A stretch of DNA of 56,237 bases from Bilabrum cf. latius (GCA_965178125.1 OZ237737.1:1674001-1730237), one strand, 5' to 3'. Positions 651 through 54,266 are shown, counted from the first letter of the stretch. Notes: generated by a model not told the origin, from the sequence alone. Made by a program: numbers and translations.

Positions 651-3600
651 ATGGCGTCAGAATCCAAGAGCCAGAATCTGTTTGATTCCGACAGCGAAAA
701 CGAGACCAAGGGGACAGGGCTGCGCATCAACCAGCGCTATGCTCGGCATTTCGACAAGAGCAGGCGAAGGATGGAGCTCGTCCGTGCCAGACACCTGGGT
801 CTAGATGTGGACTCGCAGTCGTCCTCTGGCGAGGATGGCAGCGGCTCGTCCAGCGATTCGTCCCTCGATACGGAGGACGAGGAAATGGCCTACAGCAACC
901 CGCTCACAGACATGAAGATTTTGAGGACCATTCAAGCGATCAGAAACAGAGACTAGCGAATCTACGACCCCAAGGTTGCGTGGTTCGACGGAGAGACCGA
1001 TGCGCTGGGTCCGGGCGCCCTGCCGGCCGAGCGCGAAGGGGACGGCAGCGACGGCGACGAGCCGCTGGCCGCAGCGGGCCGGCGCAAGCGAGTGACGGCC
1101 CGGGATCTCGTGCGTGAGCAAGTGCTGAGCGCGGCTGCCGATGGCCGGGAAGACGCCTTTGCCTCGGACAGCGAGGGCGAGGGCGAGGGCGAAGACGAGG
1201 GCGGCAGCGGCAGCGGCCCCGCCCCCGGCGCTTCCTCTTCTTCCTCCGCGTCCAGCAGCGCCCCCGCCCCTCGCCGCGGCCTGCCCCGGCAGAGCGACAT
1301 GGACGCCCTCGCCTACGACGAGGAGCAGCGGGCCATCCGCGCCGCCTTCTTGCAGTCGGCCGAGGACACGGCTCGGCTGGCGGCGGAGAGCGGGAGCCGC
1401 GCCAGGGAGGGGCCCCCGGAGCGGCGGAGGGAGGACGCGCCCGCGGCCACGGGGCCCAGCCAGGTGCGGTCGGTGGCGGCGGTGCCCCGCGCCGTCCTGG
1501 AGGCGGGTGGGAGGGACGTGGCCGACCTCGTGGGTGGGGGCTCGGCCGGGGCCGGGGCCGGGGCCGAGGACGACGGGGACGGGGCGAGGGACGGGCTGGG
1601 CGGGCTGCTGCGGCCCCGGCGCAAGTCGGCCAAGTCGCACCGGTCCGCCATGGCGCTGAGCGCCCAGCGGTGGCTGGAGTCGTCGCAGGGCAGGGAGGAG
1701 CTGAGGAGGCTGGGGTCGCAGGACCGGCGGCAGCTGGCGGCCTACCTGCAGGAGGGGCCCAGCGACGAGGGGGACGCCTTCTTGAGGGCCTTCCTGCTGG
1801 GCGGGGCCTGGCGCAAAGAGCAGCCGGGTCAGGCGGGAGGCCGTGGGTCAGGCGGTGGGGGCGCGTTCAGGGGCGGTGGGCGCGCGGGCGAGCCGGGGGT
1901 CGGGGGCGATGGTGATGCGGACGAGGACGAGGACAAGGACGAGGACGAGGAAGACGACGGAGGGATGGAGTCGTCCTCTCTGCTTCGCGCCAAGAACAAG
2001 AAGGCAAAGAGCCTGCAGGGGAAGCCCGGTGCCAGCAGGGCCAGCACGAGAGATCTGGTGGAGCGCGCGCGCCGTGGGGACGTCCCGAGCTACGACGAGA
2101 TCGTGGCGGGCGTGCAGGTGAGGGACAGGGACGGCGGCAAGGGCAGCAAGGGCAGCCCTGGCGGCGAGAGCGAGCCGGAGGAATCGAAATAGGAGGAAGA
2201 GGAGGAGTTGGAGGAGGCGGGCGCGGGCAAGGGCAAGGGGGCCGGGTACGGCTCGGAGGAGGAGGCGGACGAGCTGGCCCTGCGCGCGGCCGAGGCCTTC
2301 GAGCGGCGGCACAACTTTCGGTTCGAAGAGGAAGGGGGCGCCCAGGTGGTGGGCCACCCGAGGGACATCGAGGACACACTGCGGCGGAGGGACGAGCGGC
2401 GCAAGAAGGAGAGGGAGGCCAGGAGGGAGCGGAAGAGGGAGGCCAAGCGGCGGGCCGAGGAGGAGCACCGGCGCATCGTCTCCTTGAAGCGACAGGAGAT
2501 GGGCGACAAGTACCGGGAGATCGCCGAGATGGCGGGCGGCTCTCTCACGGTGGAGCAGGTGGCGGCGCTGGCCGACCTCGAGGGCGGGTTCGACCCGGCC
2601 AAGCACGACGCGATCATGGAGCGGCTGTTCGGGGAGGACTACTACGGAGGCGAGGAGGAGGAGGCGGGGGAGGCCGGCTGGGAGGCGGGGCAGGGGACGC
2701 GGCCGTCCTGGGCCGGTGCCGGCATCGACGGGCTGGACGAGTCGGGGCCCCTGGGGAGGGGGAAGGAGGACGACGCGGCCGTGGCGGAGGAGGCGCGGGC
2801 GGCGCTGGCGGGCGAGCGGGGGGAGGTCGAGGGCGAGGGCGAGGGCAAGGGTGAGGGCGAGGGCGAGGGCGAGGGCGAGGGCGAGGGCGAGGGCAGCAGC
2901 GTGGAGAAGAAGGAGGAGGAGAAGAAGAGCAAGAAGGAGAGGCGCGGCGGGAAGCTGGACCCCGCCACCGAGGCAGCCATCGAAGAGCTCGTGGACAGCC
3001 GCCCGGAGGTGCAGGCGCTGGGCTACGACGACTTCGGCCCGGACGGGAGCAAGCGCCGGTTCCGGTACCGGCCCGTGGCAGCGGACGACTACGGTCTGAG
3101 CGCGGCCGACATCCTCTTCTCGGACGACATGGACCTGAACAAGTACGTCTCGCTGAAGCGGCTGGCGCCCTTCCGCGAGAGGCCGTGGGTGGTGCCCGCC
3201 AGCAGGCAGCGCAAGGCGGTGCCCGAGCTGAGGAGGCGGGCCCTGGAGCGGATGGAGGAGGCCAGGCCCAGGTCTCGCAGGCGCGGCGGCAAGAAGAAGA
3301 AGAAGAGCTAGCAGGACTCGGAGGGGGGCCAGGAGGGCGAGCGCGGGGCGGACCACGGGGGTGGGACGCTGGGTCGCAAGCGCCCTCGGGCCGAGGTGGA
3401 AGCGGCTGCCGGGGAGCAGCTCGAGACGGGCCCGGCTGCCAGTGGCCACAGTGGGGACCACGGGGCAGCAGCCGGAGCAGAGTCCCGAGCTTCGGAGGGG
3501 CGGGACTCCAAGCGAGGCCGCGTAGAGTCCGAAGCTGGGCGGAACAGGAAGGACAAGAAAGACAAGAAGGGCAAGAAGGACAAGAAGGGCAAGAAGGGCA

Positions 3601-3776
3601 AGGAGTCCAGCATGCCGCCAGACTCGTCCTCCAGGACGGCGGCGGGGATCAGCGGGAACAGGCTGGCCTCGTACGGACTGTCTTAGCGCGCGCTGAAAAG
3701 GGACGGTCGCGACCCCAGCAAAGACAAGAAGCGGAAGAAAGCTGGGAAGAAGAACAAGCTAGTTCCGGGGAATTGA
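651..3776 (+). CDS. KRI1: KRI1-like 40S ribosome biogenesis protein (~1041 aa, intronless, 4 in-frame TAG)
   Basis: ORF pieces 651-956, 1092-2192, 2208-3311 and 3396-3686 share one frame and are separated only by TAG (954, 2190, 3309, 3684); the frame ends at TGA 3774-3776. KRI1 motifs: LRINQRYARHF, D*RIYDP, AEAFERRHNFRFEE, HPRDIEDTLRR, RFRYRPVAADDYGLSAADIL, LNKYVSLKRLAPFR, RLASYGL. Confidence 0.9.
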
Positions 3777-3880
3777 ACCGTTCCGTAGCGCTCTGTTTTG
3801 ATGCGAAGCCTAGATTTCCAATGAACTTGCACAGTATTTTCTGTGTACTTGCAACTCTGCACGCAACCAAAGTCAAAAGG

Positions 3881-5356
<1,476 letters not shown>

Positions 5357-6129
5357 GAGGCACGGGCACCGGCCGATGGTGGATGGCAGGGGCCGGGTAT
5401 GGGAGGGAGGGGGGAGGGGGTCCCGCGTCACCGGGCAGTGGACGATATGTTGCATCAAGGTTTTCGTGTTGTGAGGCACAAGCAGACTAGCGGTTCAGTG
5501 CATGTTTCTCGGAAGCATTCTGTGCACAGATCTGAGGTGGGACCGCGAGGGCGCAACACGAGCAGCAGTGTCCAGAGTTCTGCAGAGAGATGCTTGGTCT
5601 TGATGCACACGCAGAATGCTACTAGCCGTCGCATAGGTCCCTGCACGCTGCGCACGGGACGTTGCAATGGGGCCAAAAAAGTGCCCCAACTCGAACGCAG
5701 CCAGGCCCGGTGGTGCGCGGCAGCTTGCGCGCCGACGGATGGGTTCCATCTGGCAGGTAGAATTCACACTGGCGCATTTGAGTCCGCCGATATATCACGC
5801 AGAGTGCTACGCGGCACGCTTGGCCGCCATCCGTGTCGGCACAGGCGACCAACCAGGATGCCACCAGCGAGTGCCGCAGCTGGCCTGCAGCACTCGCCCC
5901 GCAAGCTATGCTTCCAGGCGTCCTTGACCTAGGGGAAATCATCTTCTCCGCAAGAAGCGTACATGCTTTATATACGTACCTGTGTTCAATCCAATGCTTT
6001 GAAGGCAAGCAGGAACCGGCAGTAAAAAAGTCCGAGAGCTGCCAGTGATTGTCAGCGGTTGGTCGAACAGGCAGATGGGCCAAATCACCGGACAATACAC
6101 AATACTGAAACGAACAACAAACTACTACT

Positions 6130-6191
6130 GCTGCAGCGGATTGAGCCCCGTTTGTAAGCGAGCGGTCCCCCCGGTTCGATGCGGCAGGCAG
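6130..6191 (+). pseudogene. Degenerate tRNA-Thr-derived sequence (copies at ~8555-8616 and ~10568-10629)
   Basis: CCCGTTTGTAAGCGAGCGGTCCCCCCGGTTCGAT closely matches CTCGTTTAGTAAGCGAGCGGTCCCCGGTTCGAT of the neighbouring minus-strand tRNA. The B-box-like GGTTCGAT is retained; the acceptor stem is not. Confidence 0.7.
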
Positions 6192-6431
6192 TTGCAGTTG
6201 CCGCAGTGCACACGTCGGATCCGATCCGGAATCCGGATCCTAACCGCACACCCGCACCGACCGCTGGCAGGCGAATAGACTGGCGGAAAGTGCCTGCCTT
6301 GGTGATAGATGGGCCCCATTTGACGCGATATCGTGCAACTACAGGCGCAGACTTTCGAAATAGAGGCCTCGGCGCTTGCCCATGAACACGAAAAAAAGAA
6401 GTGCAACTAGGAAAAATAAAATAAAATCAAG

Positions 6432-6504
6432 TGCTGCCACCCGGAATCGAACCGGGGACCGCTCGCTTACTAAACGAGTGATACTTCCGCTGAGCTATGG
6501 CAGC
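6432..6504 (-). tRNA. tRNA-Thr(AGT), D-arm-degenerate copy (possible pseudogene)
   Basis: Cloverleaf with acceptor stem GCTGCCA/TGGCAGC, anticodon arm CTCGT-TTAGTAA-GCGAG and T arm CCCGG-TTCGATT-CCGGG. Three D-region substitutions versus the third copy break the C11-G24 pair. An oligo-T terminator follows. Confidence 0.75.
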
Positions 6505-8856
6505 TCTTAGCGATCTGAGCCCATCATCCAGGTCACAGACGAAGAGTCCCTGATGAGGGAGGCTCGCGCCGGAGTGGCTCGGCTGGGCATCGCCGTAGGT
6601 GAAGTCGGACGCCAAGCCGCCGCCGGGTCTGACACTGTGTCTGGCACTGGGTCTGCCGCACGCCAGAGCGCTGCCTTGGGGAGAGTAGGGTCCTCCGCTG
6701 CTGCAGCTCACCCTCCAGCAGCCCCCCGACCTGCCTCCGGGAGACGACCATTCGCCACCAACTCGTCGACCTCGCCGGGGAGGGCCCAGCTGCACGATTG
6801 CCACGATTACCGCCAGCGGGAACGTGTCGGCGCCCAAGTCGAGGGGCAAGTGCAAGGGGGGCAATGGCAAGGGGGCCAAGATCTCGCTGGTCGAGGCCTG
6901 CGGGATCTTCGCCCCCTACCCCACCCCCCCGGCCGCCGGCCGCGTCGCGAGCCATCATGCAGAAGTCCCTGGCGACCGTGCTGTCCGTGGTGCCGCCCCC
7001 GAGCAGGCAGAGGCTGGACATGAACGCGGAGCAGGAATGGCACGGGGAAGCCGCGGGCAGCAGCGGCGTGGGAGTCGGGGCGTGCGGGGCCAAGCGCGGC
7101 CCCATGGTGCTCGAGCTCCGCGTGCTTCACGGGCCCGGCGAGGCCCGGCGAGACTTGGAATCAGGCCCGACTGATTCCGAGTCGATCGGGTCCTAGATCT
7201 AGTTTGTGCCCCCGAGGCACTTCCCTTGGGGCAAGTGCTCTAGTGGAGGCTGAGAAGGAACACGCAGCGCCACAGATATAAAGATCTGGGCTCTGGAGTT
7301 CTATTGAAAGCCCGCCCCCCCGTGAGCCCATGGAGGGTCTACGACGGGACAGACTGGCTGCGGTGCAGGATACTACCTGCTGATCCGGCCAACTGGTCCC
7401 TGCTTGACGTGTTTTATGTGTGATTGATATCAAACCTGCCGGCAGGGAGCTCTTGTTCCCTGACGACGACCGGGACGTGATGGCGTGGGGCTGCCGAGGC
7501 GGGCAGCCCTTGGGTGAGGCTGGTGCGGGCCAGCTCACCCCATCCCCATCGCCATCTTTCTCAGCAAATACCAACCGGCAGGTTGGACAGAGATTAATTA
7601 TGCATTCGTATTTTTTCAAAACGGGACCCCTATTAGGAGGGCGGGCGGCGGGGAGCGGCGCTCCGTCCCAGCGGGACCCTTCGGCGGACTACCCCTACTG
7701 CATGCGGTGCGCGGTGCTCGTGAACGGCGGCGGCTGGGACGTCGTGCGCGTGGAGCGGCTAGTCAGCCTGGGGAAGCCTGAGAGGCACGGGCACCGGCCG
7801 ATGGTGGATGGCAGGGGCCGGGTATGGGAGGGAGGGGGGAGGGGGTCCCGCGTCACCGGGCAGTGGACGATATGTTGCATCAAGGTTTTCGTGTTGTGAG
7901 GCACAAGCAGACTAGCGGTTCAGTGCATGTTTCTCGGAAGCATTCTGTGCACAGATCTGAGGTGGGACCGCGAGGGCGCAACACGAGCAGCAGTGTCCAG
8001 AGTTCTGCAGAGAGATGCTTGGTCTTGATGCACACGCAGAATGCTACTAGCCGTCGCATAGGTCCCTGCACGCTGCGCACGGGACGTTGCAATGGGGCCA
8101 AAAAAGTGCCCCAACTCGAACGCAGCCAGGCCCGGTGGTGCGCGGCAGCTTGCGCGCCGACGGATGGGTTCCATCTGGCAGGTAGAATTCACACTGGCGC
8201 ATTTGAGTCCGCCGATATATCACGCAGAGTGCTACGCGGCACGCTTGGCCGCCATCCGTGTCGGCACAGGCGACCAACCAGGATGCCACCAGCGAGTGCC
8301 GCAGCTGGCCTGCAGCACTCGCCCCGCAAGCTATGCTTCCAGGCGTCCTTGACCTAGGGGAAATCATCTTCTCCGCAAGAAGCGTACATGCTTTATATAC
8401 GTACCTGTGTTCAATCCAATGCTTTGAAGGCAAGCAGGAACCGGCAGTAAAAAAGTCCGAGAGCTGCCAGTGATTGTCAGCGGTTGGTCGAACAGGCAGA
8501 TGGGCCAAATCACCGGACAATACACAATACTGAAACGAACAACAAACTACTACTGCTGCAGCGGATTGAGCCCCGTTTGTAAGCGAGCGGTCCCCCCGGT
8601 TCGATGCGGCAGGCAGTTGCAGTTGCCGCAGTGCACACGTCGGATCCGATCCGGAATCCGGATCCTAACCGCACACCCGCACCGACCGCTGGCAGGCGAA
8701 TAGACTGGCGGAAAGTGCCTGCCTTGGTGATAGATGGGCCCCATTTGACGCGATATCGTGCAACTACAGGCGCAGACTTTCGAAATAGAGGCCTCGGCGC
8801 TTGCCCATGAACACGAAAAAAAGAAGTGCAACTAGGAAAAATAAAATAAAATCAAG

Positions 8857-8929
8857 TGCTGCCACCCGGAATCGAACCGGGGACCGCTCGCTTACTAAAC
8901 GAGTGATACTTCCGCTGAGCTATGGCAGC
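8857..8929 (-). tRNA. tRNA-Thr(AGT), D-arm-degenerate copy
   Basis: Identical to 6432-6504. Confidence 0.75.
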
Positions 8930-10862
8930 TCTTAGCGATCTGAGCCCATCATCCAGGTCACAGACGAAGAGTCCCTGATGAGGGAGGCTCGCGCCGGAGT
9001 GGCTCGGCTGGGCATCGCCGTAGGTGAAGTCGGACGCCAAGCCGCCGCCGGGTCTGACACTGTGTCTGGCACTGGGTCTGCCGCACGCCAGAGCGCTGCC
9101 TTGGGGAGAGTAGGGTCCTCCGCTGCTGCAGCTCACCCTCCAGCAGCCCCCCGACCTGCCTCCGGGAGACGACCATTCGCCACCAACTCGTCGACCTCGC
9201 CGGGGAGGGCCCAGCTGCACGATTGCCACGATTACCGCCAGCGGGAACGTGTCGGCGCCCAAGTCGAGGGGCAGGGGCAAGGGGGGCAATGGCAAGGGGG
9301 CCAAGATCTCGCTGGTCGAGGCCTGCGGGATCTTCGCCCCCTACCCCACCCCCCCGGCCGCCGGCCGCGTCGCGAGCCATCATGCAGAAGTCCCTGGCGA
9401 CCGTGCTGTCCGTGGTGCCGCCCCCGAGCAGCAGAGGCTGGACATGAACGCGGAGCAGGAAGGGCACGGGGAAGCCGCGGGCAGCAGCGGCGTGGGAGTC
9501 GGGCCGGACGGGGCCAAGCGCGGCCCCATGGTGCTCGAGTTCCGCGTGCGCACCGGCCGCCGGAGCCCGCACGGCGGTGGCGGCGGCATGAGGATGATGA
9601 TGCCTCCCCCCCCCCTCGGGTGGCGCTGTTCCGGCGAGGCTCCCGTTTGGAGGGCGGGCGGCGGGGAGCGGCGCTCCGTCCCAGCGGGACCCTTCGGCGG
9701 ACTACCCCTACTGCATGCGGTGCGCGGTGCTCGTGAACGGCGGCGGCTGGGACGTCGTGCGCGTGGAGCGGCTAGTCAGCCTGGGGAAGCCTGAGAGGCA
9801 CGGGCACCGGCCGATGGTGGATGGCAGGGGCCGGGTATGGGAGGGAGGGGGGAGGGGGTCCCGCGTCACCGGGCAGTGGACGATATGTTGCATCAAGGTT
9901 TTCGTGTTGTGAGGCACAAGCAGACTAGCGGTTCAGTGCATGTTTCTCGGAAGCATTCTGTGCACAGATCTGAGGTGGGACCGCGAGGGCGCAACACGAG
10001 CAGCAGTGTCCAGAGTTCTGCAGAGAGATGCTTGGTCTTGATGCACACGCAGAATGCTACTAGCCGTCGCATAGGTCCCTGCACGCTGCGCACGGGACGT
10101 TGCAATGGGGCCAAAAAAGTGCCCCAACTCGAACGCAGCCAGGCCCGGTGGTGCGCGGCAGCTTGCGCGCCGACGGATGGGTTCCATCTGGCAGGTAGAA
10201 TTCACACTGGCGCATTTGAGTCCGCCGATATATCACGCAGAGTGCTACGCGGCACGCTTGGCCGCCATCCGTGTCGGCACAGGCGACCAACCAGGATGCC
10301 ACCAGCGAGTGCCGCAGCTGGCCTGCAGCACTCGCCCCGCAAGCTATGCTTCCAGGCGTCCTTGACCTAGGGGAAATCATCTTCTCCGCAAGAAGCGTAC
10401 ATGCTTTATATACGTACCTGTGTTCAATCCAATGCTTTGAAGGCAAGCAGGAACCGGCAGTAAAAAAGTCCGAGAGCTGCCAGTGATTGTCAGCGGTTGG
10501 TCGAACAGGCAGATGGGCCAAATCACCGGACAATACACAATACTGAAACGAACAACAAACTACTACTGCTGCAGCGGATTGAGCCCCGTTTGTAAGCGAG
10601 CGGTCCCCCCGGTTCGATGCGGCAGGCAGTTGCAGTTGCCGCAGTGCACACGTCGGATCCGATCCGGATCCTAACCGCACACCCGCACCGACCGCTGGCA
10701 GGCGAATAGACTGGCGGAAAGTGCCTGCCTTGGTGATAGATGGGCCCCATTTGACGCGATATCGTGCAACTACAGGCGCAGACTTTCGAAATAGAGGCCT
10801 CGGCGCTTGCCCATGAACACGAAAAAAAGAAGTGCAACTAGGAAAAATAAAATAAAATCAAG

Positions 10863-10935
10863 TGCTGCCACCCGGAATCGAACCGGGGACCGCTCGCTTA
10901 CTAAACGAGCGCTACTACCGCTGAGCTATGGCAGC
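10863..10935 (-). tRNA. tRNA-Thr(AGT), best-preserved copy
   Basis: 73-nt cloverleaf with D stem GCT/AGC, anticodon AGT, discriminator A and a T-rich Pol III terminator downstream. Confidence 0.9.
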
Positions 10936-11378
10936 TCTTAGCGATCCGAGCCAGTATAAATATGTGTATAATGTGATGTTGTTGTTAAAATACTGTTCCC
11001 ATTGTCGGAGCATTTTCACTCAAAGTCGTTAGGATTGAAATATGGCAGAATTCTTGATGAAAACGATTGCAGTTATATGCATGTAAGCTTTTCGACGGAT
11101 CTATCAACTGATCTATAGAAGTTCTTGTTGGGTTGCCAAAAAATTGATATTTAGAAAATGTTGTGCGACTGGGAAGATTGTATTTCGATTGGGCCCGGTT
11201 TTCTGAATACCCTGCAGCGGTGGTGTGTCCCGCGAGGGCTTGCAACGCGGCATTGCTTCCAACATGGGATGCTGGTATTGACGTCTGTGCTGAGAAGGCC
11301 ATTTGGAGAAATGCAATCAGGATTCGAGATGCTGGCTGCCTCTCGCCCGTGCCTCCCAAGCCACCCAAAGGCTGGAGC

Positions 11379-17828: not shown

Positions 17829-17849
17829 CTCTCTCTCTCTCTCTCTCTC
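17829..17849. repeat. (CT)n microsatellite
   Basis: Intergenic run of about 10 CT units. Confidence 0.85.
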
Positions 17850-25760: not shown

Positions 25761-25796
<36 letters not shown>

Positions 25797-37791: not shown

Positions 37792-37799
37792 GGCACTCG

Positions 37800-39198
37800 T
37801 CAGCTCGGAATGCTCCCGGAGGGCAACCAGGTCACCCAGATGTCCTCCTTGTTGAGGCTGTACGCGACATACGTCCCATCCTGTCCACCCGAGGCACTCC
37901 AGTCGCGGATGTCGATCGCCTGCGGGTACTGCGCCCCTGGGCTCTTGGCACTCCCTGCGAATCTCTCCTTGCACCGAGAGTCGTCGGGGCCCAGCTCCGT
38001 GCAGCTTACCACCACTGACACGCGGTCGAACGAGGCGCCATCCTTCGAGGTAGCGATCGTGAGGGGGTCCCGCATGGGCCCGTCCTTGTTGCAGTTGGAC
38101 ACGAGGTACACGCGGCCATCGAACAAGCGGCCAGTGTTGATGTTCGAGTCCTTGTCGGGTATGTCGGTGGCCTCAGGGGTCGACCAGTGGGCGATACCAC
38201 CCGCAGTATAGTTGCGGTACGAGCTGTAGAGCTGCTGCTGCCTGGACCTGTATAGCAGCACGTCCACGGCGGCGTCCGAGGGTGCCACGTAGTGGGTGCG
38301 CTCGTTTGCGAGGTCCATGGACAGCGGCAGGCTCCAGTTCTGCAGGCCGCCCACCGCGGCTTCGCACTTTGTGGTTTTGCCTGCAGCTGTCGCGGGAAAC
38401 GTTGATTCGCAGGGGAGGACGTCGGGGTCTGCGAGGGTCCGCATGTCAGCCTGCGTGCGTGCGTCCATCTCCGGGACGGTGCGGATGCCCAGCGCGCGGG
38501 AGGCCGCCTCGAAGCCTGCGGGCACAGCTGTGGACGCCCAGAACATGGTTCCCAACTCAGGGGTACATGGATCATCGGCTGGCTGATCCACTCCGTTGCA
38601 GCGCGAGAAGTCCATCTGCCGGAGCAGCAGGATTGGCTGGTACTGGTCCGGAAACAAGCAGAACTGTTTCGGCGAGGCTGCAGCGTACCATCTTCCATTG
38701 AGAATAATCGGCGGTTCCGCGAATAGATGGGCTGGATTGCTGCTCGTGGACACATTTGGAAATAGAATCGCGTCGTTTGTCTGAGTTGCTGACCACTTCT
38801 TGCCGTCCTGCGTGACTGTGTACAGCACCCTCTGACCCGGCCTGTCCTCGCTTTCAACTCCATTTTTAAAGGTTACGACCAAACTGCCGTTGTAAAATCC
38901 CATCATGACTGCAATTGAAAGAAATGCGACCCGGAAGACATCGCGATCTTCAAAGATTACCGCACGCTTGATTCGCGCACGCGTTCAACTCACCCGCGTG
39001 ATTGTAGGTCCCAAACGATTGAATGGCATGGTACACCTCAGTGTGCACAGCACCAGGCACTTGGGTGTATCCAGCCAGCGGCTTCGATGGGTCTGGGCTT
39101 GGTGCATCCCACTTCGGAGTGAAGCCTTGTGCAACGAAGCCAAGCGTGCAGAACGCACAAAGATGAAGCACGTGCAATTTCGGCATTGTAGCTTTCAT
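37800..39198 (-). CDS. Secreted BNR/Asp-box sialidase-like beta-propeller protein; intron 38993-38909
   Basis: Signal-like N-terminus; GTYNHA|VMM; Asp-box-like TQDGKKW and TSKDGASF; RDPLTIA, GAQYP, YVAYSLNKEDIWV. Ends TGA. Confidence 0.8.
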
Positions 39199-39330
39199 TC
39201 CAGGTGCCTGCTCTTCGATGTCTCCGAATCGATCTTATCACAGGCGCAAGCTTCACAACAACAGGGGCTCCGGAGTCCTCGTCACACTGCTACTAGACTA
39301 GATCCACGCAGTCCCACTTCTGCGACCCTC

Positions 39331-41457: not shown

Positions 41458-41583
41458 TGGTGCAGATGGAATCTCCTGGTGTGCCGCCGTCCCGATAGAG
41501 AAGCCCATCACCGCGACAAGTTCCGGCTTGTCTGGCACGCGCGACGAATGGTCGGTACGGCTACTCTGCTCAGAAGATCTAGC

Positions 41584-42636
41584 TTACGTGCCTGCTTTGC
41601 CAGATGCCCGACTGACAGCATCCCGCAGCCGTTCTTTCGCATCCTCCAACGCTGCTTCTATCCGTCTCTCTTCAACCGCGAGAGCCTCTGCGTCCCTCCG
41701 CAGGTCTCGCGCCATCCGTTGCAGCTCAGGGTCTCTTGCCGCGGTCGAGGCTCCGCCCCCGGTGCCGCGCTCCGCCGACCTTAGCACTGATTCTAGCTTA
41801 CGAGCCGCCTGTTCCTACTCCCTACGGCTGCTTGTGGCCGTTTCAAGCGCGCTCTACAGCTCTGCAACCTCCCCCCGGATCAGGCGAGCCACAGCCCCGC
41901 CGCCCGTGCTTGCCGGGGAAACGTGCTGAACGCCCCGCTGCCGTCGCTGCTGCTGCTGCCAAGGAACTTGCACGCGCCCAGGGGACCCAAGGGCTTTGCC
42001 GGAGCGGGCTCGGCTCGCTACTCGAGATGCATCGATAGCATCAAAAGTCTCCGAAGCTGCCAGTGCCGATCTTCCAGCAGCTGCTTTGGACGCAAGGCGA
42101 GCTGCCCTGGCTTCTTTGGCCCTTGAGGCATAGTGCTGAGCAGGATCAGCCCCATATGAATCAATCGATGCCTTTGAAACCATGCTGCCAGCAGCGGCCG
42201 CGCCAAACTACTAAATGTCCTGTAGCCTTCTTTTCTCTTCGTCAGTCGCAACCGGTCTTCGAAACTTTGACTGGACACCTATGTCTGCTGCCCTTGCCTA
42301 TTCATCCTCCCTCTTTTTGATTTGATCTCGGCTCCGTACTTTGCCTTTCTTTGTTTCTATCGGCGCCTTTCTTACTGGTCTTTTAATTCCAACGGCAGGC
42401 CGCGCGACAGGCGTGTCTCGGTCAATTCGGCGACTCCTCGGGTCACTAGCGCCCGGTTTATGACCCCCAGGAAGAAATGCCTACCGGTCTCCAGGCATCT
42501 TCCGGGTTCTCACGGAGGGGTACGATATCTTCGCGGTAGATTTGCTACCGTACAGCTTCTTCAGCATCCTTCCCACATCCGAGTCCATCCCCACCTCTTT
42601 CCACAGAGTAGAGTTGTCTACACTGCTTGATTCCAT
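41584..42636 (-). CDS. Hypothetical coiled-coil protein (weak resemblance to UPF0193/EVG1)
   Basis: Single frame from ATG 42636 to TAA 41584-41586 with 6 TAG; motif DEEKRRLQDI**FG. Confidence 0.65.
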
Positions 42637-43066
42637 TGGAGTGGTATCACTTGGCAGCTCGTTTGTGTGAAGCGCTCGATGCTGGCCTTGCCGCTCGCAG
42701 GGTCTGCAGTTGCACTTGGCCGATGGCACAAGCAATGACGAGCGCCACTAGCATGGCGAGCAAGCATACTATTGTAGTGTTGGGAGGAAACGAGAGAGTA
42801 TACACGACATTTGGGCCGCATGCGGCTTTGGGTCGTGCTAGTCGCATCGGAATAATAGTGTGGTAAATGGGTAGGATGGGTTGGAGCGCGCACTGTTGGC
42901 AATTACGAACACTCATATCACGACAAATCGTCTCCATTGATGAACACAGTTTCAACACAAGCACGGGTGAGCCCCATGAGACTAGTATCTATAGCCAGGT
43001 TTGAGCGTGGTGAGAGCAGCGGCGGCAGCCGCTCCTGCGCACGCCAGGCTAGTCCAAGTACCGAGC

Positions 43067-44441
43067 TCACGCTGCTGGTCGGTCCCACGATGTCTCGTTG
43101 GTACTTTCGTTCCAGAAGTACACCTTCCCGTCATCCGTGGCCACTTCCTGCCACCCTGCGGGCAGGCCTCCTGCATCTGCCACTGCTGCTGGCTCCGCCT
43201 CGGCTGGCTCTGCTGATGCCTCAGCAGCTGCGGCTGCTGGAGCTGGGGCCTCTGCTGCTGCGGGAGTGGCGGCGCGCGCCACCGCTCTGACTCCAGGCGC
43301 CCTCTTGGCAGCGACTGCGATTTAAACAAAGAAGATGGGAGGACATCCAGGGGGTGCGACAGACGAGCATTGAAGGGAGGGGAGCAAGCAGCAGCAGTGA
43401 GGGTGCCAAAGAAGATAGCGCCACAGAGGATCCAGCGCTACAGGCACCCGCGGACACGAATCGCGGCCGTCGGCACAATGTACTGCAAGCTCACATGCGG
43501 CTGGCTTGGTGGCTGCTTTCTCCTGCTTGCGCATGGCAATGAACTTCTTTGCCCGCGCCTCGAGCTTCTGGTCCAGGGTCAGCGAGCTCGAGGACTTTCG
43601 GGTCATCTTGCTCGCACGCCTCTGAATCAGCTCCCTCTTACGATCTGCCATACTCTTTCTCTGCGGTGCAAAAGGCGAACGCGCCAATGGGTGACATGGG
43701 TGCTCACTGCAGCCGGGCCGGGTCACCGAATGCAACGCAGTTTCCGGGCGAATCCGGTGTGAAGTGGTACGGGTGTGACACTTTGTTGAATAAGAAACAG
43801 GTATCACCTATCTTCGGTCTAGGATATCACAAGGTATCGAGATGACGCGTGTCTCACCCTTGTTGCAACTGCTGCTACAGGTGCAGCAGCTGCTGCACCA
43901 CCTGCATCAGCTTCGCTTCCCGATGCAGGTGCAGGCGCAGCGGCTGGGTCAACAAATCCGGGCGGTGCTTCCCACCTGCGATAGAATTTGAGCCAATCCA
44001 GGACAGGCATGCATGGCAGGAGTCAGCAGCTTGCTGGCACAGAAGTGCTGAACCCGCAAAAACTGATACTTACTGCGTCTGCTGTGTTCCAGTATGATAA
44101 AAGTAATCCTGTCCTTCATCTGTGCTAGCTTTAGTCCACTCTCCAGTCAAGTCTGCTGGCTTGTCCCACTGTGTAACCTCGCTACCTTCGTTGTAGTAGT
44201 ACTCTTGCCCTTCGCCCGTGTAGAGCTGCGAAACGTGTGGATAGAGTTGGATTTATCATAGCAATGAATGTCAATCAATCAAGAATCGAGGAACTCGAAG
44301 CTCATTCGTTGTCGGATGACGACGGATCCGCAGTTGCATATCGTGCGGAGTCTTCTAGGTCTGTCCAAACCCATGATTTTCGTATCTGGTACGGGTGAAA
44401 GGAATCAATGTTGTAGTTCTCACAACCTACCAGCCCGACAT
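43067..44441 (-). CDS. Three-WW-domain protein, 5 exons
   Basis: [90 protein letters not shown] introns at 44423-44226, 44073-43976 and two more. Ends TGA. Confidence 0.82.
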
Positions 44442-44988
44442 TATTGCTTATGTCGTGTGTCGGAAGTGCAAGCGTGATCGACGGCTCGCCAGGTCGACAC
44501 CTCGATTATACGTATTTTATAGCAGCACGTTACAAAAGGTAACAGTGGCTGATGGGCTTAAACCGCGGAACCAGGCCATCTTACCGTGAGTATTGAAACT
44601 TTGGTCTGCGTGGCAAGTCGATCGGCGCCTCAGTGCTAGTAGAATGGGCATGAGAACCCTGCAAGCTGCCCAAGAACCCACAGACGTGGCGCTTAATGGC
44701 CTCCGAGTCGGGGCATCATGGCCAGGCGAGTGGCACTGTGGGCCAGTCGGTGGCACGCTTCTCTTACCGATGAGCAAGTTTGGCAAGCAGGCTACGTTCC
44801 CTGTGCATGTCCAGTGGTAGTGAACGACTACCTATTGGCACTGACCGTGCTACAACCATTTCCGGCGCACCCAGTGCTCCGATTTACTCAACCTCTGGCG
44901 TGATGCCTCATATCTGCGCTTCGAAGTGAACGGTAGCGTGAACCCTCCTCCAACCTTGCTAAATTCCAGCAATTCTTGCATTTTTGTA

Positions 44989-46208
44989 ATGGATGACCTC
45001 GATGCACATAAATTAAAGGTAGCAGAGCTAAGGGCGGAGCTTCAAAAGCGTGGGAAACCCACAGTTGGGAAAAAGGCTGAGCTCGTTCGTCGACTTGAAG
45101 AAGTGAGCAAAATTGTTTAAATCGACCTGGGTGTGCCGTAAGATCCACGCATCATGTAATTATGATATTCTTGCTTGAAACTCTTGATCAGGCTTTGGAC
45201 GAGGAGCTGTTCGGGGGGGACGAGGCCAAGGAGGACGGAAAGGGGAGCGACGACGCGCAATAGCCCGACGGCGGCGATGGAGCGGCAAAAGAAGAGCATG
45301 ATGCAGTACCAACAGAAAGCGACCATGATTCAAAAAGGTAGGCTGCGGAGGAAGACGAGAATCCTGACGGCACTGGTGCGCCATCCAATGATGCTGAACC
45401 AACCGCTGGAAAGGATGATCCCGATGGTGAGCAGGGGTCCAGCTCATATGATGGTATCGATGGCATTGATGATGCTACCAGAAAGCTGTTGGAGAGAGCT
45501 GATCGCTTTGGAATCGCTGGACCAGCAGTGGAAGAGGCCAGGCGCAAGCTACGTGCCGCCAAGTTCGGGACCGCGGGCTCTGCGCCATCTGCGTCGTCCA
45601 GCCAAGCCGCGACCTCTAGCGCTGCCCAGGCAGGCGGCTCTGCACCAGCTGCGGCGCCCAAGGTGACTGAGGAAGACTTGCAGGCCGAGCTGTCCAGCAT
45701 CGAGTCTCAGATCAGCGGCATCCTCGCGCGCGCCCAGAAGTTCGGCGGGGCCATGACGGGGCCTGCCCAGGCACAGCTGGATCAACTGCGCGCACGGCAG
45801 CGAGCCCTGCGCTTTGGAGGGGTTGACGCGCTGGCCAAGGAGAGGGCGCCCAAGCCTGTGGCGAAGCCCAAAGGGCCAAGAGATGGACAGAAACCGCCGG
45901 GGCAGCAGGGCAATGGCGGCAAGCCCAGAGCAGGAGGGGCCGGAGGCAAGAGGCAGCGGCCAGACGGTGGAGGCCAGCAGCGGGAGGGAGGCAAAGCTGG
46001 CAAGCGTCTTCGTGTAGATGGTGCAAGGGGAGGCTCGGGCGGAGGGGTGGGACGGAACCGCGGGGGCCAGGGGCGGCAGGCGGGCGGCGGGCAGAGGTCG
46101 GGCAGCGGGGGCAGGGGCGGGCTCGTCGTGCAGCAGAGCAGAGGGGGTGGCGGTGGATCCGGTAGCAGGCGCGGAGGTAGAGGGGGTGGCGGTCGGCGGA
46201 GGCGCTGA
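44989..46208 (+). CDS. SARNP: SAP-domain RNA-binding protein (Tho1/SARNP/MOS11-like); intron 45103-45191
   Basis: SAP domain KLKVAELRAELQKRGKPTVGKKAELVRRL; repeated RAxRFG motifs (RADRFG, RAAKFG, RAQKFG, RALRFG); RGG-rich tail. TAG at 45261 and 45339. Ends TGA. Confidence 0.78.
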
Positions 46209-46399
46209 GTCCGAGGCGGGCCGTGGAGGAGGCCGTTGCTGTTTGAGGTACGGGTACAATGCCTGAACTACGTCAGATGGTAGAACACCGTTGCTATTTG
46301 AGATGCAATGCCAGGTTTCAAATTGCGCAAAATGAATGCAGGTGTCGAAAAGTCCTAAAAAAAACACCAGCGTCGGCCCTCACAGACAGACATTAGCCG

Positions 46400-48736
46400 T
46401 CACTCCTCGACCGGTCCTCTCTTCCTGGCCACCCTCTGCCGAATGCCGCCCTCGGTAGATCTAGTCGGGGGCGCCGCAACATCAGCACCCGCCCCCGATG
46501 CCGGTGATGCCGTTTCGCGATCCACCGCCCCTCCTCCGCCCCTGCGCCCTCCCATGGCTACCCCCACTATGCCCATCACGTCAAGGATCGCATCCCCCGC
46601 GTCCGTCGATCCCGCCGACAGCCCGATGCCCCGCAGCAGCACGGCAGGGTCAACTCCAGTCACGGCCGCCACCAGTCGGGTAAGGGAGGCGCGAAATTGC
46701 CACGCCACAGCCATCAGACTCAAAATCAGGAGAGTGCGAGCAATCGCGCCCATGAAATTGCCTGCCGTGTCGCACACCGACAGGAAGGGCGAGCATGTCA
46801 CGTCCAGCAGCAGCTCCGCAATCAGCAGCGCGATTGCCAAGACCACCGTGCCTCCAAGGAGAAATAGCTTCGGGTAGGGGTTCATGTCGGAGTTGATCTT
46901 GCGGTGACTCTCCAGGGCGCCTCCCAGCGCGCCGTCGAGCCTCTGCCGATACCTCTCGATGAGCTCCTCGGACCCGAACTCGGCGCCGTCATTGAAGGCC
47001 TTCATGGCGCTCTCAAGCGCCTCTTGGTGCTGAACCAGCAGCGTAGCGTCCTTCATCTTGCCGTAGCCTCCAAGCCTTTCGATGCTCTGCTGCATCTTGT
47101 CATCATAGCTGAACCGAGCTGCGGCGTAGGCCGACCGGCAGGCCACATCTGCAGTTGCCTCCAGGACCGTGTTTGGCTGAGGGAAAGCATCTGCATCTCG
47201 AAACAGATTCACGTATGCCCTCAGGTAAAGCCGGAGGGCATGTGAGGTCACCGTGTTCCCGGCCAGCACCTTGCCTTGCAGCTGCTTGCGGACGGTCCTC
47301 TCCACGAAGGCACGCATATAGTCCACGAACTCGTCCCCGCAGGCATCCACCTTCCCGTTGAACCCGCGGCCTGTGCGTACGGCCTTCTCAGGGGGTGGCA
47401 GTTCGAACATGGTGACTGTCTGGAAGCAGCGCTAGATTTGTTCCCTGGTGCCCCGGATGTCCTAGATCCCGTCCTTACCCTTGCCAAGCGCAGCCTCGTC
47501 CTCGTCGTCCTCCTCCCCGCCCCCCGCACCACCCTCCTTCATGATCTGGTTCATCACGCGGTCGCACTCCGCAGCATAGGCGTCCTCCTGCCCCTGCTCT
47601 AGAGGACCCCTCCTCTCCGCCTTGGCCGAGTCGCGCACCAGCACGGTGACGTGCTGAAAGGGGGCCTTGGAGTCCTCCGGCTCGGGGGCGGCCGCCTCTG
47701 CTACCGAGGAGGAGGGGGAGTCCGAGCTTGCGGCACTGGCGTGGTGCTTCTGCTGCCGCTTGGACACGACCCTCGCATACTCCGTGAACATGCTCAACGT
47801 CCTGAGCACGTCTTCGCTGACGTTGCCCTTGATGTTGTACACCATGCTGCTGCTCAGCAACGTGCCCAGTCCAAACACGCTCCGGGTCACGTGCTCACTT
47901 GTCTTGCGGTCAAACATCCCCTGCGTGTCCAGCACGAGGACAGCAGTGCGGGCGCGCTTGCCGTCTCCCTTGCCGCTGGGCAGCGTGAGGTAGAACGGCT
48001 TGGACCACGCCCAGATGCCAACCGTCATGCGGCGGTCACCACCTCCCCATAAGAAACCATCCGCCTCCTCGTGATCTGGTGCTGCACCGCTGCTTGCAGC
48101 CGGCTTGTTGTAGTCGTCTCTGTCTGATTCATCTCGCTCCAAGTTCATGGTCAGGCTGTCCTCGAGCGTCAGCCAATCCTCCAATGGAGGTTGGCGCGTA
48201 CCGTCCCCTGCAAAGAGCGTGTAGGAATCATAAGAATAAATTAGCTTATGTGCAGGTCCACCGTAGATCGTGCTTCTAGGGTTACGTTGGCAACTCACGG
48301 CCTTCATCATGGTGCTGCATGTACTTCAGCATAAACGATAGCAAGAAGCTCTTTCCCGTTCGAAATGATCCTAAGACAGAGAGAACTGATACCGGCATAT
48401 TTGCAGGAATCTGCGACGTAAATGGTGGGACGGCCATCGAGCACGCAAGCATTGATCGTGCAGTTGCAGAAAGGGTGCAAGAATGCGCCGGTACTCACCT
48501 AGTCAATCAACTGATCCAAGTTGTTACCAACGAGTTCAAAGTGTTTTCCACCCTCCAGTACATTCACAATCTGCAAAACAAACGCTGTATTGATGGGCGC
48601 ACAAATCATTATGGGATAGCACGATTCCTATGGGTGCGCGAAAGTCAAGGCAACATACTTGTACCGGCCTGGGGCGCTGGTTCGGGCGAGTATCATTATC
48701 ATTGATACCGGATGTCACGCGTTCTTTGGCAGACAT
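46400..48736 (-). CDS. ATL: Atlastin/GBP-family ER-fusion GTPase, 4 exons
   Basis: RPVQ|IV..FEL; P-loop VLGSFRTGKSFLL; RMTVGIWAWSKPF; VLDTQGMFD; LLSSSMVYNI; FQHVTVLVRD; two C-terminal TM helices. TAG at 48499 (last codon of exon 2), 47462 and 47432. Ends TGA. Confidence 0.88.
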
Positions 48737-48972
48737 ATCACCAGAAATGCTTCCTAGACTGGTCAATGCGCTGTAAAGACGTGCTTGGCGCTGGCTAGGT
48801 TCGCTGTGTCCAGCGAACTTTCCTTTTAGCCACAGACGACTTCAATTGTTCGATCCCACATTATTCGAGCTTGAGACCCGTACTCGCTCACATTTTTCGC
48901 ATTACTCTATCGTTTGTATCATACAAGGGGATTTTTTATCCCTATTGACAATTATACCCAGGAAGCAACCAA

Positions 48973-50415
48973 ATGGGCGACAGTTGGGGAGATTGGGGTT
49001 CTAGCGCTGGGGTTCCACCGCCAGCACCCACTGGTAGTGACTCGAAAAAGGATTATTGGGGAGCCGGTGCTCCAGCAACCTCTGGTGATTCTGGTTGGGG
49101 GACTAGTGGCAACTCCTCTGGCTCCGGAAGCGGGTGGGGGAGCAGCTGGGACGCGCCAGCCCCTGCGAGCGGATCAGGTGCGAACAGCAGCAATGGCACA
49201 GCATCAACGAACGCGTAGGGCGCTGCAGGAGCATCTGCCTGGAGCCGCCATCCCCGAATTCCGCGTGCTTATGGAGGTTTTGATTGGTGGGAGGAGCTTG
49301 ACAAGGCTCCCTAGCAGTCTGGCGGCGGGAGCGGTTGGGACAGCGGTGGGGGCAGTGGATGGGGCACGTCTGGTTCAAGCGGCTGGGGATCTTCAGGTGG
49401 AAGCGGTTGGGACTCAGGGGGCAGCGGCTGGGGCTCATCGACTAACTCGAAGGGGAAGCAGTCAGCAGACCAGGCGGCCCAGCTTGCCACAGGCGGTCAG
49501 ATCCTGTTCCAATCCACGCTGCCTGTGCACCTGCAGCAGGTATACAAAGAGCTCCGAGACTAGTACTCCAACACCCCTGGCAAGAGCAAACTCATGCACG
49601 TGGTGGCATACGTAGGCACTGCCCGGGACGTGGTCTACTTGCCGCCCAGGTTCCCCGACTCGATCTACAGGGCCCAGCAGAGGGAGGGCAGCCGCCCAAA
49701 GAGCATCCACACGGCCCGCCCATTCGATATGATCGACAGGAAGAAACATGATGCGCTAGCTAGGAGCTTCCGGGCTGGGGGTGCAGCCGGTGATGCAGAC
49801 GCCGGCCGGTTGGTTCCTACCGTGGCGGTTGGGCTGCACGGGCTGCAGGGCAAGGCCGCGCAGATGAAGGCAGACTACGCCTCTCTGCAGGAGAACGCCA
49901 TCAACCTGGCAGTGGACCTCAGGAACGGGCTGCGAGACACGGCGGAGCACTTGAGGCAGGCGGAGAGCCTCCAGCTGCAGCAGTCCAGGCTCAACCGGCG
50001 GCTCGTGAGTGCAGTCACCGCGCTGGATGACGTGCTGCTGGCCAGGCAGGGCGCCGAGGCGCAGCAGATGACAGACGGGGAGCGGCAACTTGCGGATGCC
50101 GTCCGCTAGCTGGAGGACCAGCTGAGCAGGAGGCCCAGGTACGAGGGGCGGCTGGAGGGGCTGCACGACCTGTACCGACGGAGCGCGGCCTCGTTCGCGG
50201 CTGGCATGTCGGCACAGGTGGAGGAGGCGGCGGCTATGCACGACCGGTTCCTGCCAGAGGTCGCTCGGCACCTGGCCCGGCACTCGTCCAAGATCCAGGA
50301 CCTCGAGTCCGAGCTGGAGCAGGCGGAGAGACACGTGCACCTGATGGAGACCAGTCTGAGGCTGTGGCAGGGCGGGGCAAGGGGGGTGGACAGAGGCAAG
50401 GGGCGGCTGGGGTAA
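48973..50415 (+). CDS. NUP54: Nup54/Nup57-like nucleoporin with a WG-repeat N-terminus (480 aa, intronless)
   Basis: One frame with 4 TAG (49216, 49312, 49561, 50107) ending TAA. The C-terminal region LVPTVAVGLHGL...LNRRLVSAV...GERQLADAVR*LEDQL...YEGRLEGL...EVARHLARHSSKIQDL follows the Nup54 helical-domain pattern as recalled. Confidence 0.62.
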
Positions 50416-50542
50416 ACCTCCTGGGGTATCTACGATGAGCTTGGAGCCGGATGGCAACATTGAGTAACACCACAATTCCCAGGCTAGAATTACGCAAATC
50501 AAGACTTGTATCGCATGCTCCGAGGAGCATCGGAGTCGCACT

Positions 50543-52852
50543 TCACTCGTCCTCGTCCTCGTCCTCGCCCTCTCCCTCGGCTCCGACATCTCCACCTGCA
50601 GCCCGCGCCGCCGCAGCTTCGCGGCGGGCCTCTCGCTTTGCCTCCTCGGCCTACTCTCGCGCCTTGCGGGCAGCCACCGCGTCGCACTGCTTCAGAGCTG
50701 CCTTGCACCACCCGAGCAGAGCCTGACCCAGAGGGGACAGTCCACCAGGGGAAGCCCCCTCGCCGCCCTCCTCCTCCTCCCCGCCCGCTTCGGCATCTTC
50801 GCCCTCCTCCCCGTCCCCGGCTGCCCCTCCAACCGCAGGGGCAGGCGCCATGGAGCCCAGTGCCTCCCTCGCCAGGTCTGCCCTAGGCCCCTCTTCACGG
50901 CCGGCCACCGCTGCCAGCTCCTCCTGGAGCCCATCCGACCGCATCAGCTCGCGCACCGTCCCCCAGCGCACCTTGGCTGCATCTCTGGCGAGCGGATCGC
51001 CCAGGTCCTCCTTGCTGCTGCCCTTGCACAGGTGCAGCACCGCCGCCATCACCTGGCACTCAAGGGGAGCGGGCGACAGCGCCCTGGAACACACGTGCTT
51101 GCGCAGGGCATCCATGGGACCCAGGCCTAAAGACTTGGCAGCAGCTCCGATCGAGTGCCTAGCCCGAATAAGGGCTTCCACATCCGCAGGCAGCTCACCG
51201 CTGGGCAGCTCCTCCTCCTCCTCCTCCCCTGCAGCCCCCCCTTCCTCCGCCGCGCCGTCTCCACCCTCTCCCTCTCCCTCTCCCTCGGCAGCCTCCGCCG
51301 CAGCCTCTCTGGCAGCCTCCCTCGCCTCTGCTCTCGCGGCTGCCTCGTCAGCCGCCTTGGCCGCAGCATCCTCGGCCTCCTTTGCGGCCGCTTCCACCTC
51401 GGCAGCGGCTGCCTCCTCCGCGCCTGCGTCAAACCCGGCTGCCTCCTCGGACTGGAGCGCCTCCAGTGCGGCCGCTTCCAGGGCAGGCTGCGCCTTGTGC
51501 CGCTGGAACTCGGCCTCGTACTCGGCCCGCTCGCTGCGCTCGTAGGCCTTGGCCACCTCCTCGGCCCAGCCCTTCGCAGCTGCCTCTGCCTCGGGCCCCA
51601 GCCTGACATCGCGACCCAGAGTGTCCACGCACACGGCCAGCAAGACCTCCTTCTGTACTGGATCCGGAATCACCTCCTCGGCGGGCTGTGCATCTGCCGC
51701 TCCCTCCCCTTCCCCGTCCCCCTCCTTCCCCTCACCCTCCCCACCGCTGCCCTCTCCGTCCTCGCCCTCATTGGCATCCTCGCCGTCCTCGTCTTCCCCG
51801 TCCTCACCATCCCCTTCGCCGTCACCCTCGCCCTCTTCCTTCGGTTTCTCCTCCGGAATGCAGCTAGCATGCAGCGATGACATGTACCGCGCAGGCACAG
51901 CCAGGTACTGGCCCAGCTTAGGCACTGCAGGGCCCTGTGAGGGGAGGTACACCATGCGGGACTCGCGGAGAGTGTTGCTTACTCGGACCACAGGTAGCTC
52001 AGGAGGGGGTGGGGGCGGCTTATTGGGAGCTTCCCCTTCGCCATCCTCGTCCTCTTCTTCCTCCTCTTCCTCTTCTTCTCCATCGGCCCCTGCTGCCTTC
52101 ACTGGCTTCCATGCGTCGAAGGTGACGCCCTCGTTGCTCAGCGGGTGCTAGCCCAGCATGTGCTCGCTGCCCTCAGATGCTGCCAAGTACGTAATTTGCG
52201 AATCAACGGGGCCTCCAGCGCCTTCATCGTCCTCTGCTTCCTCGTCCTCCCCACCGACTCCAGCCGGAGGTGCCCCGTCCAGGGGATCCTTGCGAGCAAT
52301 AAAAACACCAGCTGCCCGGACATCCTACATCAATACATTTGCAACCTCACGAAGCTGCGCTGCGGTTATAGTCTGTGCTTCGGCCAGGTCAGAGCGGAGC
52401 TGATCTCTCCGTCGCTGCGCAGCTTCGTTTGCCTCACGCTCCTCCTTCGTAGCCTCAAGGTCTGCTTGCTGCTTGGTATCTGCTTCAGCTTGCTCCTTCT
52501 CCAGTTGTTCTGACATAGACGCATCCTGTGGGGGAAGAAATTATGATGAATGATGAGGGGAAGACATTCGAGTATTGATTGCAATTGGTGGGTTGATCCA
52601 CTCGTGTGCTTCTACCATAAATAGAAGAACGACGAACAAATCTGGACTATCACGTAATTAATCGATAGTATTATTGGACTACAACGCGATGATACTTGGG
52701 CTCACAGCAGCAGCGGATTCCATCCGCTCGGCTTGCTTCAACAGAAACGCGCCAAGGTATTCAATGGGATCTCGCGGTCGAGCTGCAACAACAGCGGCCA
52801 AGCCATCCGTAAGAACATCACCAACAGCTTCCTAGACATACGCAGCGTCCAT
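50543..52852 (-). CDS. Dpy-30-motif radial spoke protein 2-like; intron 52705-52526
   Basis: Dpy-30 motif MDAAYV*EAVGDVLTDGLAAVVAARPRDPIEYLGAFLL; ITYLAAS, GVTF, VSNTLRESRMVY, PKLGQYLAVP, CVDTLG. Four TAG. Ends TGA 50543-50545. Confidence 0.7.
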
Positions 52853-54244: not shown

Positions 54245-54266
54245 TTAGGGTTTTAGGTTAGGGTTA

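Follow-up and report, generated by a model that had tools for sequence, protein, structure and literature searches.

The 56,237-nucleotide (nt) window OZ237737.1:1674001-1730237 (the whole stretch of DNA analysed here, one strand, G+C 55-70%) very probably uses a variant nuclear genetic code. In this code UAG is read as an amino acid, most likely glutamine (Gln, Q), in which case it makes up about 14% of the Gln codons of the window, and UAA and UGA are kept as terminators. A preliminary description of the same DNA had proposed UAG as sense and UAA and UGA as stops, and this proposal is supported by codon counts, by the ends of the genes and by TAGs that are kept in spliced contigs.

The 14 gene open reading frames (ORFs) of the window comprise 9,817 codons, among which 73 in-frame TAGs, no TAA and no TGA were counted, in agreement with the absence of in-frame TAA and TGA noted before. 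In frames +1 and +2, the DNA of these ORFs (19,634 positions) contains 288 TGA, 33 TAA and 114 TAG, so that about 160 in-frame TAA and TGA together would be expected at the out-of-frame rate. TAG accounts for 0.74% of codons in frame and 0.58% out of frame; because it is not rarer in frame, the coding sequence does not avoid TAG. The 14 ORFs were delimited by TAA or TGA, which makes the zero count for these two codons partly circular. However, the ORFs were taken as genes because of their Pfam matches and transcripts, not because they are open, and the profile matches run across in-frame TAGs. Moreover, TAA- and TGA-free ORFs of 1,058 and 1,874 codons cannot arise by chance at these frequencies. 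TAG was found in 12 of the 14 ORFs; it is absent from the 880 codons of the MutS-family exon and the 368 codons of the BNR exon. When read as Gln, TAG represents 73 of the 530 Gln codons (14%). A further 11 TAGs lie in five exon segments, namely two of the Dpy-30 gene (three and two) and one each of the SAP-like (two), NPC1_N-like (one) and LRR/IQ (three) genes, which gives a total of 84 where "more than 80" had been stated. The minus-strand ORF at 33853-37026 has exactly the 16 TAGs and no TAA or TGA in 1058 codons first given for it, and the one at 18089-23710 (minus strand), with about 20 TAGs claimed, has 20 TAGs and neither TAA nor TGA in 1,874 codons. The in-frame TAG claimed for "MSH2" was not borne out, since the 880-codon exon has none and its protein is MSH4/MSH5-like rather than MSH2. 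The genes recognised in the window are as follows.

654-3776, plus strand: KRI1-like gene (Pfam Kri1 and Kri1_C; four TAGs, at 954, 2190, 3309 and 3684; ends with TGA)
11601-14060, minus strand: NagA-like amidohydrolase with long low-complexity inserts (Pfam Amidohydro_1/3; one TAG, at 12249; ends with TGA)
15065-16783, minus strand: exon segment of a gene with LRR and IQ motifs (Pfam LRR_8 and IQ in 14001-18202; three TAGs in 573 codons)
18086-23710, minus strand: long low-complexity/coiled-coil gene (20 TAGs in 1,874 codons; ends with TGA)
23904-26546, minus strand: MutS-family gene, domains III, IV and V (Pfam; no TAG in 880 codons; ends with TGA)
26992-29943, minus strand: coiled-coil gene (nine TAGs in 983 codons; ends with TAA, right after which the base composition shifts)
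30574-31170, plus strand: D-aminoacyl-tRNA deacylase (DTD), single exon (Pfam Tyr_Deacylase, 147 bits; TAG 30739 inside the fold)
31238-32200, minus strand: YbaK/ProX-type tRNA-editing gene (Pfam tRNA_edit; five TAGs, those at 31865 and 31859 within the domain match; ends with TGA)
32433-33753, plus strand: NPC1_N-like gene with an intron near 32718-32809 (Pfam NPC1_N; splice joint in contigs of the public runs X5, X6 and X7; one TAG, in the second exon)
33850-37026, minus strand: WW and C2HC zinc-finger gene (Pfam; 16 TAGs in 1,058 codons; ends with TGA)
37195-37791, plus strand: TMEM138, a ciliary membrane protein (Pfam TMEM138; three TAGs, at 37357, 37624 and 37759; ends with TGA)
37800-38906, minus strand: exon of a BNR-repeat gene with an intron at 38909-38993 (Pfam BNR_2; no TAG in 368 codons; ends with TGA)
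39331-41280, minus strand: exon of a PH-domain gene (weak PH match, below the Pfam cut-off; two TAGs; ends with TAA)
41584-42636, minus strand: gene without a known family (six TAGs in 350 codons; ends with TAA)
43067-44441, minus strand: two-WW-domain gene with four introns (highest contig depth of the aligned stretch; ends with TGA)
45192-46208, plus strand: second exon of a SAP-like gene (two TAGs; SAP label from reading the translation, without a profile match)
46400-48700, minus strand: atlastin-type GBP GTPase with three 5' introns (Pfam GBP; TAGs 47462 and 47432 in the long exon; ends with TGA)
48973-50415, plus strand: Nup54-like nucleoporin (Pfam Nup54; four TAGs, at 49216, 49312, 49561 and 50107; ends with TAA)
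50543-52876, minus strand: Dpy-30-motif gene, radial-spoke-like and acidic (Pfam Dpy-30; three and two TAGs in two exon segments; ends with TGA)

The 14 ORFs end with TGA (ten) or TAA (four) and none at TAG; the two-WW-domain gene and the Dpy-30 gene likewise end with TGA. The ratios of A- to G-ending codons in the 14 ORFs (CAA:CAG 66:391, GAA:GAG 159:547 and AAA:AAG 89:314) predict 12-21 in-frame TAAs if TAA were sense. Because none was seen, TAA is not a sense codon. Past the four terminal TAAs the frame continues for 15-95 codons up to the next TGA, with a third-position GC of 0.53-0.62 in three cases and 0.68 in the fourth, compared with 0.75 within the coding sequence of the coiled-coil gene. 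Table 6, in which UAA and UAG (UAR) both encode Gln, was therefore rejected, as no TAA is in frame and TAA terminates 4 of the 14 ORFs. Codes in which all three stops are reassigned or ambiguous, such as those of Condylostoma, karyorelicts, Blastocrithidia and Amoebophrya, were rejected because TGA occurs 288 times out of frame and never in frame.

We also considered an ambiguous code, in which UAG would be Gln within genes and yet, depending on context, still a stop near some 3' ends. The frame of the DTD gene ends with CCA TAG TAA TGA (31165-31173), and this TAG might be what is left of an earlier terminator, with the stops behind it as back-up, or might be there by chance. In addition, only 14-19 gene ends were seen, a small sample that supports the absence of TAG terminators weakly and has room for a UAG stop in some contexts. 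For Scotinosphaera, it has been conjectured in the part of PMC8271138 that was available that some genes still end with TAG. However, none of the 14 ORFs needs TAG as its terminator, and the in-frame frequency of TAG gives no sign of avoidance. An ambiguous code is thus improbable, although it survives better than the other alternatives considered below.

The identity of the encoded residue was approached through homologues, repeats and Pfam profiles. Two close relatives of the zinc-finger protein, P0069 and P0186, are 88% identical to its residues 809-959 and have Q at the site of TAG 34180-34182, with both flanks conserved. The atlastin relative P0001 (62% identical) has Q at TAG 47432, where human atlastin-1 has H. 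The exchange of TAG and CAG was seen in two further settings. First, the ORF of P0070, which shares one 5,626-nt contig with P0069, ends exactly at the site of the window's TAG 34669-34671, and the ends of P0069 and P0186 coincide exactly with a CAG of the window (near 34147). Accordingly, the relative would have in-frame stops, once at a TAG and once at a Gln codon of the window, these stops being assumed to be TAG. Second, the 1,874-codon gene contains 18 head-to-tail repeats of 22 residues (about 18290-19477, minus strand) that are almost identical at the protein level, and degenerate end copies have TAG (19487 and 18314) where the full copies have CAG. The atlastin fragment P0002 (94% identical) begins at the first Met after the second atlastin TAG.

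In the profile test, TAG was translated as different residues and the Pfam bit scores were compared. TMEM138 gave Q 55.4, K 53.6, R 53.3, E 53.2, D 53.0, S 52.6, A 52.3, Y 52.1, W 51.5 and L 51.3 bits, so that Q is ahead by 1.8 bits, the profile preferring Q at 37624. DTD gave E 147.6, Q 147.0, D 147.0, K 146.9, S 146.7, R 146.4, A 146.2, Y 145.1, L 144.6 and W 144.6. YbaK gave K 61.2, Q 60.1, E 60.0, S 59.5 and L 58.5, and Nup54 gave Q 34.5, E 34.4, K 34.3, S 34.0 and L 32.0. Summed over the four domains, the scores are Q 297.0, K 296.0, E 295.2, S 292.8 and L 286.4. Judged by these profiles, the swaps exclude Leu, as well as Trp and Tyr on the two domains tested for them (DTD and TMEM138), and disfavour Ser, which is 4.2 bits below Q. 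UAG as Leu was rejected because it is 10.6 bits below Q and the worst of the five residues on all four domains; no L was found at any TAG site among the close relatives. UAG as Ser was rejected on its 4.2-bit deficit and because the close relatives show Q, Q and E; among distant homologues at three TAG sites near the zinc fingers, S accounts for 2 of 16 residues, both at one site.

Several observations weigh against Gln. E is found at TAG 47462 in both P0001 and human atlastin-1, and a TAG between two zinc fingers corresponds to K or R in all seven distant aligned stretches (three K and four R, from five proteins). In the Pfam swaps, Q, K and E lie less than 2 bits apart; K scores 1.1 bits above Q with the YbaK profile, and E scores 0.6 bits above Q with the DTD profile. 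The stop codons of the relatives were not seen as DNA, and their identity as TAG is assumed. A classifier based on neighbouring residues did not call Q, with R, L, E, K, V and Q within 5 bits of one another at the TAG sites, but it fails on true Q sets as well, of which 60 held-out sets were assigned to L (33), Q (16), R (9), H (1) and A (1). The classifier, whose first version was dominated by the tandem repeat, was rejected as unreliable. It recovered true Ser sets in 51 of 60 held-out trials, and Ser was outside the ten best labels for the TAG sites.

These observations would fit a code in which UAG is sense and encodes glutamate or lysine, resembling the UAG=Glu half of the code of ciliate PL0344. 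Many of the TAGs also lie within acidic runs, and the summed profile scores place K only 1.0 bit and E 1.8 bits behind Q. However, E and K are common replacements of Q at variable sites, so that they carry little weight against Gln. In contrast, the closest relatives have Q between conserved flanks, P0001 has Q at its second atlastin site, TMEM138 prefers Q, and TAG is paired with CAG in the internal repeat and at the ORF break of the relative. Glutamate or lysine is therefore doubtful, slightly more so than the ambiguous code. As a test of Gln, the homologues offer few sites overall, with Q at two of the three sites in close relatives, one E and one K/R column. Because the close relatives were weighed most, Gln is the best reading, and these comparisons indicate that UAG is most likely read as Gln. 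The earlier guess of Gln is thus supported by the Q in close relatives, the TAG/CAG exchange at the ORF break and in the repeat, and the first place of Q in the Pfam swaps.

Contigs of four public runs from three studies (X5, X6, X7 and X8) were aligned to 30500-50499, of which 33000-42999 is present in runs of several studies. No differing letter and no insertion or deletion was reported between the window and the contigs of all four runs. At 11 joints the X5, X6 and X7 contigs lack 85-198 nt bounded by GT..AG on the gene strand, whereas X8 represents the unspliced form, with 43164-50499 in one contig. Since X5-X7 are spliced and X8 is unspliced, the spliced contigs are best read as transcripts. 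None of the 11 joints removes a TAG, which answers the proposal that very small introns might take TAGs out of the transcripts. Record 2 of X5 passes the 32717/32808 joint and then runs uninterrupted to 37099 across the whole zinc-finger gene with all 16 TAGs; over 32808-37099 it has no difference and no joint. The TMEM138 TAGs are present on the contigs with the 38908/38994 joint, which cover TMEM138, and the atlastin TAGs on those with the 48206/48298 joint; the YbaK gene is covered by zero-difference contigs in X5, X6 and X7. The six X5 records listed span 33 TAGs, 23 of which are on records 2, 3, 4 and 5, which carry or adjoin a joint. In the two-WW-domain gene, a TAG at 44427-44429, five codons past the ATG and just before the confirmed donor of the intron from 44423, is kept in the spliced contigs.

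Because the exactly matching spliced contigs retain the TAGs, tiny introns, RNA editing and assembly error are unlikely. An unchanged code with assembly or sequencing errors, pseudogene lesions, very small introns or RNA editing is hardly credible, since the in-frame stop codons are all of one kind (73 TAG, no TAA and no TGA), contigs from three studies match the window at every aligned base, no joint removes a TAG and the ORFs of the relatives break at the same site; in its favour, the run types are not on record, so that the library type of X5-X7 is a guess, and contigs drop rare variants, so that partial editing is possible.

Seven of the 11 introns start with GTGAG, ten end with GCAG and all 11 end with CAG, and their lengths fall into groups of 85-91 nt (seven), 98 nt (one) and 180-198 nt (three). 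Their range of 85-198 nt agrees with the introns of about 90-300 nt described before. The Nup54 contigs of X5, X6 and X7 stop at 50368-50377, about 40 nt short of the ORF-ending TAA (50413), which could be an assembly break against the neighbouring minus-strand transcript or an unrecognised 3' intron.

UAG-to-Gln decoding could be explained by a mechanism proposed for other organisms. The UAG-only reassignments that have been studied are ascribed, in the available parts of PMC5304391 and PMC9161772, to a tRNA with anticodon CUA, one base from tRNA-Gln(CUG), together with a change in domain 1 of eRF1, which in Iotanema is a T-to-G change in the GTS motif. By analogy, the window organism would read UAG with a tRNA-Gln(CUA) that arose from tRNA-Gln(CUG) and is unable to pair with UAA, which would thereby remain a stop. 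Likewise, eRF1 has probably lost its affinity for UAG through a domain 1 change comparable to that of the GTS motif in Iotanema. Neither an eRF1 gene nor rRNA was found within the 56,237-nt window, and the only tRNA genes in it are three tRNA-Thr(AGU) genes on the minus strand (6431-6504, 8856-8929 and 10862-10935).

Nuclear codes that split UAG from UAA are, according to excerpts of PMC11687900, those of a rhizarian (Leu), Iotanema (Gln), Scotinosphaera (Ser), and Protocruzia and some phyllopharyngeans (Gln or Leu), as well as one oligohymenophorean with UAA as Lys and UAG as Glu. The preliminary description was right that such uncoupled cases exist, but its list was incomplete, as it omitted Scotinosphaera, Protocruzia and the phyllopharyngean ciliates covered in the excerpts of PMC11687900 and PMC8271138. 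The table inferred here is of the Iotanema/Protocruzia type (NCBI table 15). Iotanema spirale (Fornicata) resembles the window organism in that UAG is sense and probably Gln, UAA is a stop, the organism is a non-ciliate flagellate and the mechanism proposed, tRNA-Gln(CUA) plus an altered eRF1, is the same; unlike the window organism, it is an endobiotic anaerobe known from its transcriptome, with a GTS-to-GGS change in eRF1 (PMC5304391 and PMC9161772, in part). Small shares of the sampled words of this DNA occur in runs labelled as protist and algae metagenomes, and relatives are found in other environmental assemblies, which may point, weakly, away from Iotanema.

Protocruzia tuzeti and some phyllopharyngean ciliates also have UAG alone as Gln and UAA as a stop, as given in part of PMC11687900. 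However, the window differs from these ciliates in its TTAGGG telomeres, its G+C content of 55-70% and its GT..AG introns of 85-198 nt. Such telomeres, high GC and introns of this kind do not look ciliate-like. Scotinosphaera, a green alga, is a non-ciliate with UAG alone reassigned and TAA and TGA as stops (PMC8271138, in part), but its UAG encodes Ser, which fits the window poorly. The uncultured rhizarian exLh and some phyllopharyngeans likewise have UAG uncoupled from UAA, but read it as Leu, the residue furthest below Q in the window. Table 6, used by ciliates, hexamitins, ulvophytes and aphelids, shares the stop-to-Gln change for UAG and differs in extending it to UAA, which in the window ends ORFs and is never in frame.

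The window represents a eukaryotic chromosome end, as judged from the terminal TTAGGG array, the 155-nt repeats and an internal TTAGGG array. The terminal array occupies 55741-56233 (81.7 units), consistent with the TTAGGG telomeres named before. The internal, telomere-like array at 54256-54834 (96.5 units) is located within the subtelomere. Between the two arrays lie 5.5 copies of a 155-nt repeat (54895-55746, 98% matches). The TMEM138, Dpy-30 and LRR/IQ proteins suggest, by their family annotation, a ciliated organism. At the other side of the window, a unit of 2.0-2.4 kb is present in three tandem copies at 3990-10960 (about 98-100% identity), each with a tRNA-Thr(AGU) gene at its end; the first copy also includes a long (CAG)n tract (about 4425-4590). 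The three copies, being nearly identical where all align, were set aside for the comparison of TAG with other codons, and no credible Pfam family was found on the unit.

Six-frame Pfam scans of 3801-7102, 14001-18202, 50401-54242 and 32301-33862 added only the LRR/IQ, Dpy-30 and NPC1_N genes. The MutS-family exon has no match to domain I or II, and its nearest atlas clusters are MSH5 and MSH4 (0.97-0.98); the protein is probably a meiotic MSH4/5 and not MSH2, a lead from the atlas only. The atlastin exon matches atlastin-1 in the PDB with an E value of 1e-41. No relative of solved structure was found for the N-terminal piece of the KRI1-like protein, and no relative of near length for the coiled-coil gene. 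DTD (plus strand) and the YbaK/ProX-type gene (minus strand), two tRNA proofreading genes, are arranged tail to tail (30574-32377). Single contigs in X5 (30546-32233) and X7 (30537-32300) span both genes, so that their 3' ends appear to overlap.

Close relatives were found by word-based protein searches only in Logan assemblies; among named proteins, the one that best matches the MutS protein is another paralogue, 36% identical. Scanning metagenomes with the atlastin alignment yielded no relatives. A scan with the MutS relative P0004 yielded one GC-rich (74%) contig, L001:1-9454, which carries the MutS relative P0005 (60% in the best segment to P0004) and several long intron-free ORFs. This contig has no clear in-frame TAG, and its ORF at 6002-7459 ends with TAG under the standard code, which is uninformative either way. 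The other 79 loci of the scan have a best-segment identity of 35-40% to P0004 and look bacterial, at a glance only.

Because its ORFs break at the same site, a close relative with 85-94% protein identity appears to have the reassignment as well, and the relatives' fragments P0002, P0069 and P0070 look like truncation products of standard-code translation. The relative at 62% identity has long unbroken ORFs. The code switch might thus have happened recently, inside a small clade where it could be dated.

The literature search, to which the supplementary taxon lists of PMC5304391, PMC8271138 and PMC11687900 did not belong, found no report of a UAG-only reassignment that fits a GC-rich flagellate, and the code may have been published under the organism's name. 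The finding probably represents a known kind of code in a further lineage. More tentatively, at somewhat short of an even chance, it represents an independent UAG-to-Gln reassignment that has so far gone unreported, in a GC-rich (55-70%) ciliated eukaryote with introns, outside both the ciliates and the fornicates.

Standard-code annotation of this genome truncates most of its genes. Most known stop reassignments are found in AT-rich genomes, and nuclear codes in which UAG and UAA differ in meaning are few. If true, the present case would be one of stop-codon capture in a GC-rich genome with TGA as the main stop. Since a chromosome end has been assembled and both spliced transcripts and close relatives exist, the tRNA and eRF1 changes could be read directly and the event dated, and a further case would test whether the dominance of TGA in a GC-rich genome favours the capture of UAG.

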